This document shows positions 7,599 to 21,284 of a stretch of 64,000 nucleotides of DNA, one piece after another. The DNA comes from a virus (lineage: Duplodnaviria > Heunggongvirae > Uroviricota > Caudoviricetes): the IMG/VR virus record IMGVR_UViG_2541047715_000004. One strand, given 5' to 3'. The translations under genes and the position numbers were made by a program. Position 1 is the first letter of the stretch. Every line of letters starts with the position of its first letter. The notes below the pieces were generated by a model. It was not told the DNA's origin, searched no databases, and saw only the letters and a program-made list of their open reading frames with translations.

Positions 7599-7619
7599 TT
7601 TGTTCTGGCGTCTGTAATT

Positions 7620-7685
7620 AGCCTGCTTCTGTATATATAAATAACTACATATTAATTATTAATATACGGAAGCAGGCTGTTTTAT
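7620..7685 (+). terminator. long hairpin (17-bp arms) followed by T-rich tract
   Basis: AGCCTGCTTCTGTATAT ... ATATACGGAAGCAGGCT then GTTTTAT; a second copy with the same arms is at 37341-37393. Confidence 0.5.
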
Positions 7686-7784: not shown

Positions 7785-8015
7785 ATGTCATACCCGACTA
7801 ATGTCGTTGCGCTCGTAGAGAGCGATTTTCTGGCCCAGGCTCGTGAAATGATGAAAGATCGTGAGCAGGCTTTCAACTTGTACGAATGGGCAATTAAGTG
7901 CTTGCATCTTGGGGAGCATCGCGAACTTGTTGAACAGCTTTTAGGTGAGTTGATCAACGAGGTGTTTGCCTTGAATGTTCAACTACATGGTCGAAAAAAT
8001 AATCAATCGAAATGA
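7785..8015 (+). CDS. hypothetical protein
   Basis: ATG at 7785 preceded by AAGGAAACC. Confidence 0.4.
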   Translation: MSYPTNVVALVESDFLAQAREMMKDREQAFNLYEWAIKCLHLGEHRELVEQLLGELINEVFALNVQLHGRKNNQSK

Positions 8016-8601
8016 TAGATAAGTACAAACTATTCATAAAGTGAATTGTAAGTGCTAAGATCTGATAGTTTCCAGTCGTAGACTGGAGGCTCGACCTGAT
8101 GGGTGGGGGTAAGCGTCACTGGCGTCAGGTTTAAAAAAGCTCACTACCAGCGTAGAACCGGCACCGTTTAGGGGTTGGGGAAGGGGGAACCAAAGTGAGC
8201 AGAGACAAGGGTCACTTTATGATTGTCGAGTCTGGGGTGTTTCGAGAGGTTGAATCCAGTACTCCCCTTCATAAAGTGTGGGAAGATCTCGGTTCTGGGG
8301 TGCTGTCATCCATAACTTCCCAAGCCTAAGCTGGCAGTAGACTTAGGTCATAACTTTTCAGGTTATGAAACGACCAGGTTGGTGAGGAAATTTTGTACTC
8401 ACCTCCCTGGGAGAGTATTACCTGAAAAGACAACCTCTCACTTCGTTCGAGGTGAACTTCACTCACTTCGTTCGTTCAGTTCAGGTTTATAAAAACCTGT
8501 TCTGGGAAGTAATTTGTTTATTTTAATAATTATTAACACGCACGCGTGTGCGCACGCGCGAGGAAAAAAAAATCGGCGCGGCGCTTGATTCAGGAGTTTA
8601 T

Positions 8602-9192
8602 ATGACGACGAAGACACCAGCCCGATCGCAAGCAAAAACTCGCAAAAATGACAAAAACAAAAATTCTCCCCGCACCAATTCCACAACGCCTGTCGTAGAG
8701 TTCAATCCCCAGCTTAAAACCGTGAAAATCTTCAGTGATGGCTCTTGCCTTAAAAATCCGGGTGGCCCGGGCGGTTACGGTATAGTTCTCCAGTATGGTG
8801 GTGAGGAACGCGAGTTCTCAGATGGTTTTCATAGCACCACCAATAACCGCATGGAGATGATGGGGGCACTTATCGGGCTGGAGCGTTTGAAATATCCATG
8901 CAACGTTATTTTGTACTCTGATAGCCAGTATCTGAAAAACGGCATGACACAGTGGATGAAATGGTGGAAACGCAATGGATGGATGACTTCTGACAAAAAA
9001 CCGGTAAAGAATGTTGATCTGTGGAAGCGTCTGGATGAGGCCGCAAGTCGACATAATGTTCGCTGGAAGTGGGTTAAAGGTCACGCCGGGCATCGTGAAA
9101 ATGAAATATGTGATCGACTCGCGAAGATCGCAGCTTTTTCAGCAGCAGATATGCCTCACAAGAAAGATATTGGTTTTGTTTATAACAAGTAG
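8602..9192 (+). CDS. rnhA: ribonuclease HI with basic N-terminal extension
   Basis: [21 protein letters not shown], catalytic core and [11 protein letters not shown]; AGGAG RBS before ATG 8602. Confidence 0.85.
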
Positions 9193-13010: not shown

Positions 13011-16000
13011 CTATATCTGCCCACCTACTCCTTTGAACTTTTCAATAAACGTGACGATTTTCTGGAAAACGGTCTGTTTTTTCGTTTTATATTGCGGGTT
13101 TAACGGACTAAGTTTTGGTAATGTCTCGTTTAATTCTGTGCCATTTTCGGTGGCGTATTCGCGTTTTAAAGACGTGCGAATATAGCGTTTCGCCGCCTCT
13201 TCATTGAGATTTTCTTCTTTTATCAATGCTTCTGCTTCACGTTGCTGTTCGCGTTGAGCAAACGTAAAGAATGCCTCAATGATACTGGCTTTGTCTGGTA
13301 AATCATCCAGGTTCGTTTGCTGAATAAAATCGACCACCAGGCCCTCTTTCGCCCGGTTCCCCAGGCTTGAACGAATTAAGCGTTTGACCTCTTCGATCAT
13401 TTCGCCCTTGCCTTTATTTTGTCTGTTGTGTTCGAAAATCAGTCCAAGGATATAATCCAGGTTTATTTCCTGAGACTTCAGCAAATCGACCTCAAAAACT
13501 ACGTCATCCCAGTCAGTGGTTGATTTCTCTTTTTTCTCAGCTTCTTTCTCACGGCGCTGCCAGTCGCGAATATCGTTATAGGCAGAACGATAATCCTGAA
13601 TCTTGCGTTCAGCAGGGAGACGAATTGTTTGCAATTCAGCGAACTTTTCATCATCCACATAATGTTCTGCTTTGAATTTTTCTACCGCAACAGGATCGCT
13701 AAGATCGATTTGTTGCAGGGCTTTCAGCGTGGCAAATTCATCATAGTTTTGCAGGATGTTCTCGGCACGCAGGTATTCACCAAACAGTTTTACGAAGTCT
13801 TTCTTCTCTTTTTCACTTTCAATACTGGCAGGGTCAGGGAACCGTTGTTCCAGTTCTGAAACTACTGCCATAAAGCCGCGTTTAGCTTCACCAGTGGCAG
13901 CATCTGTAAAGCCTTCCATATACTCAGCATAACTCTTTTCTAACACCACATTTTTAGTATTTTTATCACCAAACAGCGTTATGGCATCAATGGTTGAGCG
14001 TTCCAGATCCCGAAAAGTGACGATGTTACCGAAGGTTTTAGTAGCGTCATAAATGCGGTTGGTACGGGAGAATGCCTGCATCAGGCCGTGAAAACGCAAG
14101 TTTTTATCGACGAATAGCGTGTTCAATGTTGGAGCGTCGAAGCCGGTTAAAAACATCCCAACGACAATTAACAGATCGATATCCTGATTTTTAACCCGTT
14201 GGGCTAAATCACGATAGTAGTTCTGAAAACCGTTACTGTCGGTGCTGAAGTTAGTTTTAAAATAGCTGTTATACTCACGAATTGCAGCGTCAAGAAACTC
14301 TTTAGCACTGCTGTCCATTGCGCTGGTATCAAAAGTTTCATCGGAAATTTCACCAATGGCATTTTGTTCTTCATTGGCGGCAAAGGAGAAGATTGTTGCA
14401 ACACGCAGCGGTTTATAGGTAGCCGATTTATTAGCTGCTTCCTCTTGTAACCGTTTAAACGTCGCGTAATAGGCTTTCGCGGCATCCACGCTACTCACTG
14501 CCAGCATGGCATTAAAGCCTTTGGAACCTGGGAAAGTACGGTGGGTCTTCTGGCGGAAGTTATTCAGAATATATTGCGTAATTTCCTGTATACGCATGGG
14601 ATGAAGAAATGCCTGCTGATTTTCAGCCGCACTCAGTTTTTTCTCGTCGGTTTCTGTCTCTAAAGATTTAAACTGTGGCCGCACATCGTTGTAGTCCACC
14701 TTGAATTTGAGCACTTTTTCATCACGAATCGCATCGGTAATTACATACGAATGCAATTCACGACCAAATACGCTGGCGGTCGTTTCTGAGCCTAAGGCGT
14801 TTTCCGGGAAAATAGGTGTGCCGGTAAAACCAAACTGATAATAGCGTTTGAATTTCTTCTTCAGGTTTTTCTGCGCTTCTCCAAACTGGCTGCGGTGACA
14901 TTCATCAAATATAAACACCACTTGCTGATTGTATACAGGCAGGTCGCTTTCTGCTTTCATCAGGTTATTAAGTTTCTGAATAGTGGTGACGATAATTTTG
15001 TTATCGTCCTTATCCAGATTGCGTTTAAGACCTGCGGTATTTTCCGAGCCGTTGACGCTGTCTGGCGAAAAACGCTTATATTCATTCATGGTCTGGTAAT
15101 CGAGGTCTTTCCTGTCGACCACGAAGAAGACTTTATCAATAAAGTCCAGCTCTGTTGCCAGACGCGCGGCTTTAAAGCTGGTGAGGGTTTTACCTGAACC
15201 GGTAGTGTGCCAGATATACCCACCGCTTTCCGGTTTTGACCAGTTCTTCGCTGTAAAGGAACTCTTAATTTTCCACAGAATGCGCTCAGTGGCGGCAATC
15301 TGGTACGGTCGCATCACCAGTAGCGTTTGGCTAACATCGAATACGCTGTAGTTCACTAAGACATTAAGCAGGGTATGTTTCTGGAAAAAGGTGGCGGTAA
15401 AGTCTTTGAGGTCTTTAATCAGCGTGTTGTCTGATTTCGCCCAATTCATGGTGAAGTCAAAACTGTTTTTATCGCGCTTTGTCGTGTTGGCAAAGTAACG
15501 GGTATCGGTGCCGTTGGAAATGACAAACAGTTGCAGATACTTAAACAGAGAATTTTCGCTGTTAAAACTCTCTTTGCTGTAACGATGTATCTGGTTAAAG
15601 GCCTCACGAATCGCCACGCCGCGCTTTTTCAGTTCGATTTGTACCAGCGGTAAGCCATTAACCAGGATCGTGACGTCATAACGGTTAGCATGAGAACCCG
15701 TCTGTTCAAACTGCTGGATAATCTGCACCTTGTTGCGCATGAGATTCTTTTTATCTATCAAATAGATGTTCTCAAGACGCTCGTCATCAAAAATAAAGTC
15801 GCAAATATAGTCGATATGGATTTTACGGGTCTTATCCAGGATGCCATCGCTCGGGTTATCCAGATACTGCTCCGTGAAACGCCGCCATTCGCTGTCATTA
15901 AACACCACACCATTGAGGTTCTGAAGCTGTTCCCGAACGTTGGCCAGCATCGCCGACTGAGATTTTACGGAAATAAATTCATAGCCCTGATTCCGCAGAT

Positions 16001-16127
16001 CCTGAATCAGTTCACGTTCCAGGTCCGATTCGCTCTGGTAGCTGTCGCCTGTTTGCTCGGCTTTGATGTACTTATCAAGAACGATAAAGTTATTGGATTC
16101 AGCAATGGTGTGTGTCTGATGAGTCAT
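13011..16127 (-). CDS. hsdR: type I restriction enzyme R subunit, type IC (EcoR124-like)
   Basis: 1038 aa; Walker [13 protein letters not shown]-box FDECHRS, helicase motifs; N-terminus [20 protein letters not shown] matches my recollection of EcoR124 HsdR. Confidence 0.95.
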
Positions 16128-16248
16128 AGCGCATCCTTTGTGCCGTCTGGCAAGGGCCGGAAGGGCTTTAAGGGCGACTTCCGGCGTGTAAAAAATAGTC
16201 TCTATATAGACCGGATGTTAAGGTGATCCGGTCGGTAGCAATGGTCAA

Positions 16249-17496
16249 TTAGTTACTGATAGTTTCAGGTTTGGGAAAACTGAACAGTAAATCACGATAG
16301 TACTCGTATTGTTTCTGGCGCAACTCGATTTCACGCGGAAGACCTTCGGTGATGGAATTGGTCAAAGCATCAAATTTATCCAGTAATTTCACTATTTTTT
16401 GTTGTTCAACTAGCGATCTTTCAGGAGAATCAGGAAATGGTACTGGTATCATAAGTTTTCTTAAGTTATCATTATAAAGTCTTTTAATAGTTCCACCTTC
16501 AGATATTCCCCATTTTGCTATTTTATAGAAATAGAATAAATATTTATTTAAAACTATTTTTTCATTATTTTCAATCCAGACAATATTGCTATCCTGGAAA
16601 TATGATTCCCTACCATCAAATATAACAGTCCTGCCGATGGTCCCACTGGCAGAAATCAATACTTCGCCAACTTTAGGATAACTATATTTTTCTTTAAATT
16701 CATTAAATAGTTTTCTAGATATATAGGAATCGGGTTCCTTACCAAATGTCCCAATTTTATAAAATGGAATCTCTCCCTCAGAAGATGTTTGTGATTTTAG
16801 GATTCGTTTACACATACGAACTTCACCAATTTCCCCCAAAGCTTTCCACTCAACCTCACCCTCTTTAAAACTCAACAACTGGTCGCGATAGTAGTTGTAT
16901 TGTTTTTTACGCATGCTAAGCTCAGCGGTAAGCTCAGCGGTAAGTGCAGTAAATTTATCCAGAATCCTGACGATTTCAGACTGGATAGCCAGCGACTTTT
17001 CCGGGTTGTTGGGGCAAGGGATGGGGATAAGTAATTTACCTATATCTTTAGCATACAAATGATAAACAGTAGAACCTTTAACCATTTGCAATATCTTTTT
17101 TTTGTTATTTATTATGAAATTACTTAGATATCTACCATCAACACCAGAGCATCTAATAATCAAAATATCGCCGCCTAAAATAACGCCACTTTCTTGAATG
17201 CAACTAGCTGTAGCCAAACCTCTTGGTGTAACGTCTGACGTTGGCATTAGAACATCATTTTTTTCAGATAGAATTGACTCATTGATTGCTTGGTTTGTTT
17301 TTGAGCATACTTTGTCAATTATGGGACCATAATGAGTGAAAAGCTCACCGTAATGAATACAATATCTATTGCCATCTGGAGTTATTTTTTCTTTAGGTAA
17401 AGACTTCCCTTTTAAAAAAGTTGCTAATTTATTTAATGCTACCCACTCAACCTCAGCCCCATCCAGCAGTTTTTCCAGATAACTCAGCTCGCTCAT
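16249..17496 (-). CDS. hsdS: type I R-M specificity subunit, type IC with two divergent TRDs
   Basis: Conserved N-terminal, central ([29 protein letters not shown]) and C-terminal ([41 protein letters not shown]) regions; AT-rich variable TRDs. Confidence 0.95.
16918..16941 (-). repeat. 2 x 12-bp tandem repeat in hsdS central region, encoding TAEL-TAEL
   Basis: + strand AAGCTCAGCGGT twice, then a degenerate third copy. Confidence 0.85.
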
Positions 17497-19055
17497 GCCT
17501 GTACCTCGCTACCTTCAATCTCAGCAACAATCGCATCAATATCTTTACGCAACTGGTCGATTTTGCTGACCGTGGTTTTCAGCTCAGCATTCAGCTCAGC
17601 GATATCGATAATTTCGCGAGTATCTTTCGCTTCCACATAGCTGCTCACCGACAGGTTATAGTCATTCGCGACAACAGTCTCAAACGCAACAGATTTCGCC
17701 AGATGAGCAACATCTTCCTTGCTGGCAAATACCTGCATAATCTGTTCGATATGAGCATCGGTCAGAATGTTGTTGTTAGTCTCTTTTTTGAACAGTTCGC
17801 TGGCATCAATAAACTGAACTTTGGTATCCGTTTTATGTTTAGACAGCACCAGAATATTGACGGCAATAGTGGTGCCAAAGAACAGATTCGGTGCCAGTGA
17901 AATCACGGTTTCGACATAGTTATTGTCGACCAGATACTGACGGATTTTCTGCTCCGCGCCGCCACGGTAAAAAATGCCTGGGAAGCAGACAATCGCAGCG
18001 CGACCTTTGGCCGAAAGATAGTTCAGCGCATGTAATACAAACGCAAAGTCAGCTTTGGATTTGGGGGCCAGAACGCCAGCCGGGGCAAAACGTTCATCGT
18101 TAATCAGCGTCGGGTCATCGCTGCCAATCCATTTCACCGAATACGGCGGGTTAGAAACGATGGCATCAAACGGTTTTTCATCTCTGAAGTGCGGCTCAGT
18201 CAGTGTATTACCCAGCTTGATATCAAACTTGTCGTAGTTGATGTTGTGCAAAAACATGTTCATACGCGCCAGGTTATAGGTCGTATGGTTGATTTCCTGA
18301 CCAAAAAAACCTTCTTCGATGATATGGTCATCAAACTGTTTTTTCGCCTGCAACAACAGCGAACCGGAGCCTGCTGCCGGGTCGTAGATTTTGTTAACGT
18401 GGGTCTGCCCGTGCATAGCCAGTTGTGCAATCAGCTTAGAGACGTGCTGCGGTGTAAAGAACTCGCCGCCGGACTTACCGGCATTCGCCGCATAGTTAGA
18501 AATCAGGAACTCATAGGCGTCACCGAACAGGTCAATCTGATGTTCATGGAAGTCACCAAGTTTTAGCCCTTCAACCCCTTTCAGAACCGCAGCCAAGCGG
18601 GCATTTTTATCTTTAACGGTGTTACCCAGGCGGTTACTGGTGGTATCGAAATCAGCAAACAAACCTTTGATGTCAGCTTCTGAAGGATAACCGTAAGCAG
18701 AACTTTCGATAGCAACGAAGATGCTGTTTAAATCTGCATTCAGTCTGTCATTAGTATTTGCTTTCGCAGCTACGTTGCAGAAAAGCTGACTGGGGTAGAT
18801 GAAGTAGCCTTTAGTTTTGATGGCATCGTCTTTAATGTCATCAGTAATTACGCTGTCATCCAGTTTCGCATAACAGATACTGTCATCACCGGCTTCAATA
18901 TAACTGGAAAAATTTTCGCTGATAAAACGGTAAAAAAGCGCGCCCAAAACGTACTGCTTAAAATCCCATCCATCGACTGAACCCCTGACATCGTTAGCAA
19001 TTTGCCAGATCTGGCGATGAAGCTCTGCACGTTGTTGAATACTTGTCATTTTCAT
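17493..19055 (-). CDS. hsdM: type I R-M N6-adenine DNA methyltransferase subunit
   Basis: 520 aa; motif [14 protein letters not shown]; stop overlaps hsdS start (ATGA). Confidence 0.95.
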
Positions 19056-20158: not shown

Positions 20159-20184
20159 AGGCGGTGCAATGCACCGCCTTTTAT
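20159..20184. terminator. bidirectional terminator between convergent UmuD'-like gene and apbC
   Basis: AGGCGGTGCAATGCACCGCCT followed by TTTAT. Confidence 0.6.
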
Positions 20185-21284
20185 CACACTGCGCGGAATG
20201 CGATTTCGCCAGGTATTACTTCACCTTGCCAATACATTTGGGCGGCAACGCGATCTGCGAGGTCACGATAAATAGCCGTAAATTCGCTATCTGGACGACT
20301 AATAACGGTTGGTGTTCCGTTATCCAGATCTTCACGAAGAGAGATATGAAGTGGCATTTGGCCTAACAACTGCGTGTTGTATTTCTCGGCCAGTTTCTGT
20401 GCGCCACCGGTGCCAAAAATTGGCTCGTGATGACCGCAGTTACTGCAAATATGCACACTCATGTTTTCGACGATACCCAGTACCGGCACTTCGACTTTTT
20501 CGAACATCACAATGCCTTTCTTCGCATCGATCAGCGCGATGTCTTGCGGCGTAGTTACCACAACCGCACCAGTTACAGGAATGTTCTGCGCCAGCGTCAA
20601 CTGAATATCACCAGTGCCCGGCGGCATATCGAGAACGAGATAGTCCAGATCAGGCCATAGAGTTTCCTGCAACATCTGCATCAGCGCCTTGCTGGCCATC
20701 GGTCCACGCCACACCATTGCATTGTCGTCGGTGACCAGATAACCAATAGAGTTGGTTGCCAGGCCATGAGACATGATAGGTGCCATGTGAGTACCGTCAG
20801 GTGAGGTTGGACGTTGGTTTTCCGCGCCCAGCATGGTTGGAATTGATGGACCATAGATATCGGCATCCAAAATACCAACTTTCGCACCTTCAGCAGCCAA
20901 CGCCAGTGCCAGGTTTACCGCCGTGGAGGATTTACCCACGCCGCCCTTGCCTGAGCTGACGGCGATAATGTTCTTAACGCCATTAATGCCTGGTTGGTTT
21001 TTGACGCGCTTAAGCGTGGCAATGTTGTACGACAGCTTCCAGTCAATAGCCTTTGCGCCAGTGATACGGAGCAGATCACCACTACATTGCTCTTTCAGGT
21101 CTTCAAAAGGCTTATTCCACACGAAAGGCATGATTAGTTCGACATGCAGTGTGTCATCCATCAACGCAACATGGTGTAACGCTTTAAGCGTAGTCAGGTT
21201 GTGTTTCAGGGTTGGGTGCTGAAAATTAGCCAGCGTACCGGCTACCATTGCTCTCAGGGCATCCGGCGATTTGGACTCGCTCAT
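20184..21284 (-). CDS. apbC: Fe-S cluster carrier ATPase ApbC/Mrp
   Basis: 366 aa, GKGGVGKS P-loop; near-identical to E. coli Mrp as I recall it. Confidence 0.95.
   Translation of the reverse strand: MSESKSPDALRAMVAGTLANFQHPTLKHNLTTLKALHHVALMDDTLHVELIMPFVWNKPFEDLKEQCSGDLLRITGAKAIDWKLSYNIATLKRVKNQPGINGVKNIIAVSSGKGGVGKSSTAVNLALALAAEGAKVGILDADIYGPSIPTMLGAENQRPTSPDGTHMAPIMSHGLATNSIGYLVTDDNAMVWRGPMASKALMQMLQETLWPDLDYLVLDMPPGTGDIQLTLAQNIPVTGAVVVTTPQDIALIDAKKGIVMFEKVEVPVLGIVENMSVHICSNCGHHEPIFGTGGAQKLAEKYNTQLLGQMPLHISLREDLDNGTPTVISRPDSEFTAIYRDLADRVAAQMYWQGEVIPGEIAFRAV

Follow-up and report, generated by a model that had tools for sequence, protein, structure and literature searches.

Is the non-coding gap upstream of the rnhA gene in a 64,000-nucleotide stretch of Caudoviricetes DNA (IMG/VR record IMGVR_UViG_2541047715_000004; the whole stretch is called the window below) a spacer, a regulatory site or a gene in its own right? 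The original prediction, made from the letters alone, had described an apparently non-coding region of about 520 bp with G-tracts, direct repeats and an alternating purine-pyrimidine palindrome, which could encode a structured RNA or be a regulatory or recombination hotspot. The gap is real, with small shifts in its coordinates: it extends from 8016, after the stop codon of a 76-amino-acid gene (7785-8015), to 8601, immediately before the rnhA ATG at 8602. It was also said to hold no open reading frame of 60 or more amino acids, and none exists on the + strand inside it; the sole frame of that size touching the gap is on the minus strand (75 amino acids, TTG start, 8459-8686) and overlaps the 3' end of the gap and the start of rnhA. 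The 701 bases around the gap are 100% identical to Escherichia coli plasmids of ~110 kb, 98% identical to Escherichia phage Cyrano and 88.6% identical to Salmonella phage SSU5. Because of these identities we assign the window to an SSU5/pHCM2-type phage-plasmid of E. coli. The locus lies inside a long same-strand block of replication and nucleotide-metabolism genes, including those for ribonucleotide reductase, ThyX, DHFR, a Pol III epsilon-like exonuclease and Dam.

Comparative analysis indicates that the region is very probably a dedicated gene for a pseudoknotted, structured non-coding RNA of ~450 nt, specific to SSU5/pHCM2-type phage-plasmids. Covariation, a conserved promoter and the missing coding signal bear out the earlier suggestion of a structured RNA. 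The predicted + strand transcript folds with an energy of -172.4 kcal/mol (z -4.7), versus -138.4 kcal/mol (z -3.6) for the - strand. We aligned 50 distinct close relatives with MAFFT (alignment A1, not fitted to any structure) and took the structure from RNAalifold: 99.6% of cells are paired, and in 116 cells both partners have changed. Column shuffles gave 29.6 ± 5.7 such cells, and none of 500 reached the observed 116. Since the close relatives left most helices untested, divergent homologues were sought and combined into a 14-sequence alignment (A3), on which 17 helical segments (P1-P15 and the pseudoknot) were drawn in window coordinates. In this alignment 42 of the 118 pairs are changed on both sides, compared with 23 ± 2.9 in shuffles (again 0/500) and just 8-13 of 118 when the partners are slid by 1-3 columns. 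Standard pairs occupy 92.3% of the cells, versus 85.1% in column shuffles and 33-48% in the slid controls. Both alignments therefore contain compensatory substitutions beyond their controls, as expected of a structured non-coding RNA. Many G-U pairs are invariant, and the same sites would be A-C mismatches if read from the other strand; for this reason we place the predicted RNA on the + strand. The features of the locus are as follows.

7785..8015, + strand: small gene, 76 amino acids, PHROG 5343; directly upstream of the RNA in every locus with upstream flank examined
8018..8031, no strand: degenerate palindrome copy GATAAGTACAAACT (of GGTAAGTACTTACC), operator-like, abutting the -35 element; perfect in Klebsiella/Enterobacter-type relatives
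8033..8061, + strand: promoter of sigma-70 type with extended -10; hexamers and spacing conserved in all clades; predicted start 8067-8069
8068..8512, + strand: predicted structured non-coding RNA core, ~445 nt, P1-P15 and pseudoknot; 3' end placed at the following U-rich tract
8069..8089, + strand: P1, 5'-terminal hairpin, by covariation
8093..8200, + strand: 5' domain with P2 (8093-8106/8116-8131), P3 (8139-8144/8195-8200) and P4 (8158-8165/8171-8178), by covariation
within 8093..8200, + strand: invariant purine-rich junction GGGGAAGGGGGAACCAAAG of the 5' domain, from the alignment
8213..8348, + strand: central domain P5-P10 by covariation, with invariant loops AGAGGUUG, GAUCUCGGUUCU and CUGGCAGUAGA
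8349..8428, + strand: P11 hairpin (8349-8354/8362-8367), pseudoknot and P12 (8374-8410), from sequence events in loci L267, L259 and L261
8433..8478, + strand: twin-hairpin module, P13 ACCUC(UCACUUCGUUC)GAGGU and P14 GAAC(UUCACUCACUUCGUUC)GUUC, invariant in the main clades
8482..8512, + strand: P15 hairpin (variable sequence, pairing kept in most clades) and conserved tail UUCUGGGAAGUAA, from the alignments
8513..8535, + strand: variable U/A-rich tract with a U-run in nearly every clade; probable RNA end, by clade comparison
8536..8560, no strand: alternating purine-pyrimidine tract of CACG/CACACG type, Z-DNA-prone; repeat number differs among clades
8561..8575, + strand: AGG, poly(A) (A9 at 8564-8572) and TCG; poly(A) length 5-9, gene-replacement breakpoint right after TCG
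8602..9192, + strand: rnhA, RNase HI with a basic N-terminal extension of ~40 amino acids; a usual, dispensable neighbour outside the RNA element

Predicted helices, promoter and transcript boundaries

The comparative evidence shows that the predicted RNA begins with a protective 5' hairpin and comprises ~15 helices with at least one pseudoknot. The 5' hairpin, P1, consists of wholly different self-complementary sequences in the different clades, with pairs changed on both sides in 3 of 7 cases in A1 and 7 of 8 in A3. In A3 the same holds for 7/10 pairs of P5, 3/7 of P8 and 5/7 of P10. The terminal loop of P4 reads GUUUA here and GAAA or UUCG in the divergent clade, as expected for a purely structural hairpin. 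Long-range closing helices proposed by RNAalifold disagreed between alignments, and we therefore retained just those helices that have local support. In the pseudoknot, the P11 loop (8355-8361) is paired to 8422-8428, enclosing P12 (8374-8410). The pseudoknot is shorter by exactly one base pair in L267 (CUUUUAGGU with ACCUAAAAG), and an A-U pair is replaced by U-A in L259 and L261 (UUCUGG with CCAGAA); the P11 stem itself changes from CAUAAC/GUUAUG to CAUAG/CUAUG. The evidence for the pseudoknot was read from the sequences by eye and not from the count table, because the automatic alignment mis-registers its columns.

The short motifs that first drew attention to the region find their places in this fold. 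G-tracts are present at 8100-8108 (GGGTGGGGG) and 8171-8187 (GGGGTTGGGGAAGGGGG), but they are helix strands and junctions and do not support a conserved G-quadruplex, such as had been suspected. GGGG at 8171-8174, the first tract of GGGGTTGGGG, is the 3' strand of P4 and covaries with its partner (CCGGCACC/GGGGTTGG becoming CCGGTGCC/GGTGTCGG), and the purine run past it is the invariant junction. In many E. coli copies this first tract of 8171-8187 reads GGTGTC. The stretch has only three adjacent tracts, whereas a conserved G-quadruplex calls for four conserved tracts of at least three G with short loops, and the divergent clade has only GGGGAGAGGGAG, with two G-runs kept. We rejected the quadruplex because the first tract covaries as a strand of a Watson-Crick helix. 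The direct repeat CTCACTTCGTTCG is likewise present, as two 13-nt copies at 8437-8449 and 8462-8474, 25 nt apart, which are the loops of the adjacent hairpins P13 and P14. It has no further match in the 64 kb with two mismatches allowed, and the window contains no additional copy, sense or antisense, of either the repeat or the 3' tail of the RNA. P14 has the stem GAAC/GUUC here, GAAAC/GUUUC in the divergent clade, where the exact second repeat copy is lost, and AGAGC/GCUCU in L267. Alternative pairings can be drawn, as GAGGUGA is able to pair with either repeat copy.

The predicted RNA very probably has its own sigma-70 promoter of the extended -10 type, with a predicted start near 8068, as comparison among clades indicates. 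In the window it consists of a -35 element TTCATA (8033-8038), a 17-nt spacer ending in TGc, and a -10 element TAAGAT (8056-8061). The -35 element varies between TTCATA, TTCAAA, TTTAAA and TTTACG across clades, being TTTACC or TTTACG in the divergent clade (68%), and the -10 element between TAAGAT, TACAAT, TAAAAT and TAGAAT in the main clades, with TAACAT (and TGc) in the divergent one. The spacing of 17-18 nt and the TGn motif are kept in all clades while the spacer sequence diverges. The covarying P1 hairpin begins exactly at this predicted start (~8067-8069). At the other end, the RNA probably terminates at the U-rich tract after 8512.

Past the core, the order of elements is conserved across the main clades: a U/A-rich stretch of 25-40 nt, (CACG/CACACG)n of 20-30 nt, AGG(G), poly(A) of 5-9 and TCG. 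This module lies outside the structured core and is vestigial in the divergent clade. We compared its length polymorphism at window positions 8536-8575 and at the same place in L002-L072, L257 and L258. The 25-nt alternating tract ACACGCACGCGTGTGCGCACGCGCG is real, although it occupies 8536-8560 and not 8538-8562; by our arithmetic, a perfect alternation of 25 nt is expected by chance ~0.004 times per 64 kb. Uninterrupted and rich in CG and CA steps, it has a predicted propensity for Z-DNA. It is 20-30 nt long in all main clades, with a variable number of repeats, and 6-9 nt in the divergent clade. The overlapping palindromes CACGCGTG and GTGCGCAC noticed within it exist in the window but are missing from one clade (L067-L069). 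The poly(A) run has 5, 6, 7, 8 or 9 residues in E. coli copies that hardly differ elsewhere. Where other genes take the place of rnhA, the whole module stays with the RNA, with the breakpoint exactly after AAAAATCG (TCG).

The palindrome abutting the promoter belongs to a wider set. Ten window sites match GGTAAGTAnTTACC with at most three mismatches (6977, 9195, 14736, 17396, 27305, 39398, 40905, 42821, 46396 and 58770), against 1.3 expected (0/100 shuffles reach 10), and a more degenerate copy is at 8018. Seven of the 11 sites lie at gene junctions, across the early and structural gene blocks, and the sites at 8018 and 46396 are directly followed by -35-like and -10-like hexamers. The palindrome is also found upstream of rnhA in an unrelated phage contig (L064, 2315-2330). 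It could be an operator or a processing signal. Further upstream, just past the Dam gene, a long hairpin at 7608-7680 (GCCTGCTTC ... GAAGCAGGC, with an AT-rich loop of ~45 nt, then TGTTTTAT) is likely a terminator dividing the upstream operon from the unit of small gene and RNA.

Distribution of the RNA and its neighbouring genes

The RNA stands out as an island of conservation. Sliding identity over ~8100-8520 is 86-100% against ten divergent relatives, compared with 60-85% for the flanking coding DNA of Dam, the small gene and rnhA; the RNase H proteins of RNA-carrying plasmids are 77-100% identical. Taken over ~8090-8512, the 86-100% identity contrasts with just 70-80% in the flanking genes of relatives. 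By these comparisons the RNA element is better conserved than the surrounding proteins. A single copy occurs in each of 687 PLSDB plasmids, all at least 87% identical, whose hosts are Klebsiella (310), Escherichia (195), Enterobacter (88), Salmonella (49), Citrobacter (24), Cronobacter (10) and others; it is likewise present once in each of 12 phage records, and it is found in 54 gut-metagenome contigs. The region had been open to dismissal if absent from all relatives; it is present in essentially all of them. Judged by these searches, the RNA is confined to, and nearly universal in, phage-plasmids of the SSU5/pHCM2/pKpn type. Yersinia plasmids are missing from the hit lists of both the RNA and rnhA, so the related pMT1 group (PMC7969092) probably lacks both.

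Distant-mode blastn against phage and plasmid collections and one metagenome scan returned nothing below 87% identity. After these DNA searches had failed, the divergent homologues were reached solely via the neighbouring small protein, through relatives 58-70% identical to it. L259-L263, the divergent clade, have a ~68%-identical non-coding copy in the same slot (nhmmer E ~1e-50), and intermediate homologues are L271 (Buttiauxella, 90%) and L267 (82%). Distant RNase H phages (L073-L081, L064 and L065) yielded no RNA homologue by nhmmer. A Logan contig (L268, SRR8137545) shows this locus with almost all of its C residues read as T, and was left out of the alignments because it was assembled from bisulfite-converted reads. 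In L264, L265 and L266 (~1745-2200), where the small upstream protein is ~70% identical, the same slot between the small gene and the RNase H genes holds a different non-coding sequence of ~450 nt, without detectable similarity to this RNA. Its + strand folds at -163 kcal/mol (z -5.2) and its - strand at -121 (z -2.5), and it may be a second RNA type in the same position.

We found no sign that the gap is translated. The only annotated open reading frame within the RNA (8195-8329, 44 amino acids) is interrupted by 1-nt and 2-nt indels in several clades and has no Pfam or PHROG match, and substitutions in the region track base-pairing and not codons. With neither a preserved frame nor family homology, the gap region is, on comparative grounds, not coding, and the conserved small protein gene that might have explained it is not found there by homology. 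The 76-amino-acid product encoded upstream has homologues in this phage-plasmid group only. Its model has three predicted helices (predicted local distance difference test score, pLDDT, 79) and no PDB match better than E = 4.7, and we rejected on these grounds the idea of a Rop-like RNA binder.

Downstream, rnhA encodes an RNase HI (Pfam RNase_H, E = 2e-45) and adjoins the RNA in the great majority of copies. Framing the region as an element upstream of rnhA is nevertheless not supported. In Enterobacter pE70-A and a Citrobacter plasmid, betT or hypothetical genes follow the RNA in place of rnhA; in the divergent clade rnhA is absent and a gene for an unrelated 200-amino-acid protein is found there; in Buttiauxella an rnhA remnant is followed by an opposite-strand helicase. 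The converse also occurs: another phage type has an 88%-identical rnhA but lacks the RNA. The constant, functionally related set of downstream genes expected of a riboswitch or other cis-acting leader is not seen, and because rnhA is replaced in several lineages while the RNA is retained, we infer that the RNA works in its own right and not as a leader of rnhA.

The RNase HI itself has a basic, low-complexity N-terminal extension of ~40 amino acids (window 8602-8725), the Pfam RNase_H domain starting from residue 40. This is the least conserved part of the gene: of ten relatives compared, nine have a DNA identity of 50-61% there. E. coli RNase HI is not known to have such an extension. The cargo of this plasmid includes a complete type I restriction-modification system (hsdR, hsdS and hsdM by Pfam), and a ParA/Mrp-like ATPase is also encoded (13011-19055 and 20184-21284, both on the - strand). 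In the related phage PhiR41_1 a methionyl-tRNA synthetase gene is annotated in the same general region.

Possible functions and the twin-hairpin module

Searches for the identity of the RNA, proposed along with the original prediction, were negative. Rfam 15 gave no hits at gathering thresholds over the whole window, and at E up to 10 only chance-level matches, the best of 15-21 bits (hepatitis C virus stem-loop, STnc40, SpF22 and mir-375), all within the GC-rich and AT-rich stretch 8436-8587 and far below threshold. The families covered include ROOL, GOLLD, OLE, raiA, RNAI, CopA, 6S, RNase P, tmRNA, group I and II introns and ribozymes. ARAGORN found no tRNA or tmRNA genes in the window. The literature that we searched does not mention this region or any non-coding RNA of SSU5 or pHCM2. 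Judged by Rfam 15 and by the literature open to searching, the RNA gene is undescribed.

We tentatively favour, as a possibility that we hold with well short of even confidence, an RNA acting in trans as a scaffold or decoy. Transcription would start near 8068 from the RNA's own promoter, producing a + strand transcript with P1 at its 5' end. The transcript would fold into ~15 helices and the pseudoknot and terminate at the U-rich tract that follows 8512. The invariant loops of this RNA, single-stranded and chiefly those of the two UCACUUCGUUC hairpins, could then engage a conserved cellular or phage factor, with the engagement timed to the early phase of the phage-plasmid, that of replication and nucleotide metabolism. 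We favour this model because the sequence is conserved above the proteins, the loops are invariant, the RNA is independent of the downstream gene, and the twin-hairpin module is portable.

This portability emerged when genomes, one for each species, were scanned for two CACTTCGTTCG copies 8-20 nt apart. The pair occurs in at least 120 genome stretches, at least 119 of them unrelated (L082-L201), where ~1 hit is expected from base composition alone, an expectation that tandem repeats could raise. Among the matches listed, the hosts include Bacteroidia, Planctomycetota, Acidimicrobiia, Neisseriaceae, Helicobacter, Halobacteria and Altarchaeum; the flanks of CACTTCGTTCG have T at -1 in 83% and C at -2 in 68% of instances, and at least three closing pairs in 81 of 256 instances, versus 12 of 256 in a shifted control. 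In the same matches the module has no recurrent neighbouring gene and no strand bias relative to genes. Viral contigs gave 93 motif-pair hits, ~17 of them, by our count, outside the SSU5 relatives, and a reversed-sequence control gave 1. The viral loci with the module are L273, L278, L284, L288, L294, L307, L314, L317, L321, L327, L328, L331, L332, L337 and L341. L284, L288 and L294 share 25 identical nt, AACTTCACTCACTTCGTTCGTTCAG (window 8455-8479), and their first hairpin has a compensated stem, CATC/GATG versus CCTC/GAGG. Unrelated contigs have the twin-hairpin module only, without the remainder of the RNA. No Rfam family matched the module in 18 loci sampled, and we found no mention of the motif sequence in the literature. 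There is no enrichment of T-runs downstream, and the module is therefore not a general terminator.

We also observed hairpins with a (C)UCACUUCGUUC(G) loop in intergenic positions of many bacterial phyla, archaea and unrelated phages. Their stems are variable and self-complementary, and the hairpins frequently occur as pairs or as tandem arrays whose period is 15-41 nt (15-27 nt in arrays of the 11-nt core). The variants CTCGCTTCGCTCG and CTCATTTCATTCG look like covariation of a mini-stem (A4:U10 to G4:C10 and C5:G9 to U5:A9). A far-reaching idea, which we regard as improbable, is that the RNA is the first known representative of an RNA class of phage-plasmids whose portable UCACUUCGUUC-loop twin hairpin is the ligand of a near-universal factor, captured or mimicked, for example, for priming or licensing lytic replication with RNase H or for blunting host defence.

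Several points weigh against the model of a trans-acting structured RNA. The binding partner of the decoy is wholly hypothetical, and where the transcript starts and ends, and how abundant it is, are predictions. The terminator scan found no canonical intrinsic terminator after the core, so read-through into the downstream gene is possible. The pseudoknot is based on two sequence events read by eye, and covariation is no test of P13, P14 and several other helices, because they are invariant. The absence of a strand bias and of a recurrent neighbour suggests, moreover, that the module may act at the DNA level elsewhere.

Four other explanations have to be weighed against this model. In layout, the locus is a promoter followed by ~500 nt of structured RNA, an AT-rich stretch, a GC-rich tract and an A-run, which we take to resemble the segment from ColE1 RNA II to the origin (GCGCAGAAAAAAAGGATC). 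The locus might then be an RNA-primed (R-loop) origin for the lytic phase, its pre-primer hybridised at the AT-rich, Z-DNA-prone, polypurine (AGGAAAAAAAAA) stretch, cut by RNase H and extended by DNA polymerase. The location among replication and nucleotide-metabolism genes would suit such an origin, as would the usual proximity of rnhA, the absence of Yersinia plasmids (which would include the pMT1 group) from both hit lists, that of the RNA and that of rnhA, and the cohesion of the RNA with the AT-rich/alternating/AGG/poly(A) module, up to a breakpoint exactly after the A-run and TCG. However, GC skew does not switch at 8.5 kb, and the surroundings are free of DnaA boxes, iterons and GATC clusters. 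On the minus strand a single promoter-like site was detected (8074-8045), which faces away from the RNA and leaves no candidate for an antisense RNA I, and Rfam detects no plasmid-replication RNA, RNAI included, even at E = 10. The divergent clade dispenses with rnhA, with its purine-pyrimidine tract and A-run vestigial, and a pre-primer has no obvious need of a pseudoknotted fold of 15 helices conserved beyond the proteins; we consider such an origin unlikely. Slightly less likely still is a cis-acting 5' leader (a riboswitch, attenuator or thermosensor) of the downstream gene, with the hypervariable poly(A) as a phase-variable spacer. The replacement of the downstream gene by unrelated genes in several lineages, and by one on the opposite strand in Buttiauxella, with the RNA retained, speaks against it, as do the U-rich tract after the core in nearly all clades, a size and complexity far beyond known leaders, and the close rnhA relative that has no such leader in another phage. 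It would account for the lack of a clear promoter between the RNA and rnhA and of a canonical terminator past the core, for a poly(A) run, ~30 nt ahead of the ribosome-binding site, whose length differs (5 to 9) even between near-identical copies, and for the alternative pairings of GAGGUGA with either repeat copy.

The two repeats, 25 nt apart with the partly complementary GAGGUGA between them, also recall the immunity loci of phages P4 (CI), N15 (CB) and P1 (c4), in which a processed RNA pairs with repeated targets and controls the choice between lysis and lysogeny. The element is a phage-plasmid like P1 and N15, and an operator-like palindrome abuts the promoter. Yet no further sense or antisense repeat copy exists in the 64-kb window, the second copy is not conserved in the divergent clade, known immunity RNAs measure 70-80 nt versus 450 nt here, and the locus is in the replication and nucleotide-metabolism block and not by a repressor or antirepressor, which makes an immunity RNA very unlikely. 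Least probable in our view, with hardly any weight, is an element acting as DNA (a packaging site, recombination hotspot or protein-binding array) whose conservation is unrelated to RNA: the 42 compensated pairs, G-U intermediates and strand asymmetry are unexpected for sites in duplex DNA, and the conserved promoter is positioned exactly at the first helix. What such an element could explain is the hypermutability of the alternating tract and A-run next to a gene-replacement breakpoint, and the widespread 11-nt core in tandem arrays (periods of 15-27 nt) that show no strand bias to genes.

Comparison with known systems

Phage-plasmids of the SSU5/pHCM2 type are among the commonest large extrachromosomal elements of clinical Klebsiella, E. 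coli, Enterobacter and Salmonella. A pseudoknotted RNA of 450 nt with its own promoter, conserved above the proteins of the element, would be unexpected in such well-studied hosts; most large bacterial non-coding RNAs come from Firmicutes or metagenomes. Cultivable systems exist in phage Cyrano in E. coli LF82, phage SSU5 and pHCM2. If the RNA primed replication with RNase H, it would define the lytic origin of the family. If the twin-hairpin module bound a universal factor, it would open up a motif that spans bacteria, archaea and phages and has no Rfam match in our sample.

Among described RNAs, the predicted RNA is most readily compared with ROOL, GOLLD, OLE and raiA, which are also several hundred nucleotides long, with many helices and a pseudoknot, were recognised by comparative genomics before their function, and are more conserved in sequence than the neighbouring proteins. 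With ROOL and GOLLD it shares the context of a mobile element or prophage. However, it matches none of the four in Rfam 15, at gathering thresholds or at E up to 10, and it is found in Enterobacteriaceae, in one phage-plasmid group, whereas the others are from Firmicutes or from lake or rumen metagenomes. ColE1 RNA II is similar in its promoter, its ~0.5 kb of structured RNA, the GC-rich tract and A-run, the association with RNase H and the G-rich segments. Unlike ColE1, the locus lacks an antisense RNA I and Rom, and homology between the two is not detectable; its carrier replicates as an IncFIB-typed plasmid, and the RNase H gene is dispensable for retention of the RNA. The immunity RNAs of phages P4, N15 and P1 (CI, CB and c4) are likewise encoded by phage-plasmids and combine short direct repeats with a complementary segment, but the RNA described here is ~6 times longer, its repeat pair is not found in all clades, and the window holds no distant target copies. 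Finally, the cabRNA of staphylococcal phages is a structured phage RNA of ~400 nt sensed by CBASS, the cyclic-oligonucleotide-based anti-phage signalling system (bioRxiv 10.1101/2023.03.07.531596). With no homology evident, the two are alike in being phage-borne, of similar length and highly structured, and cabRNA acts through protein binding; they differ in host clade, and the RNA of the SSU5/pHCM2-type phage-plasmids would be expressed from its own conserved promoter in a non-coding gap.

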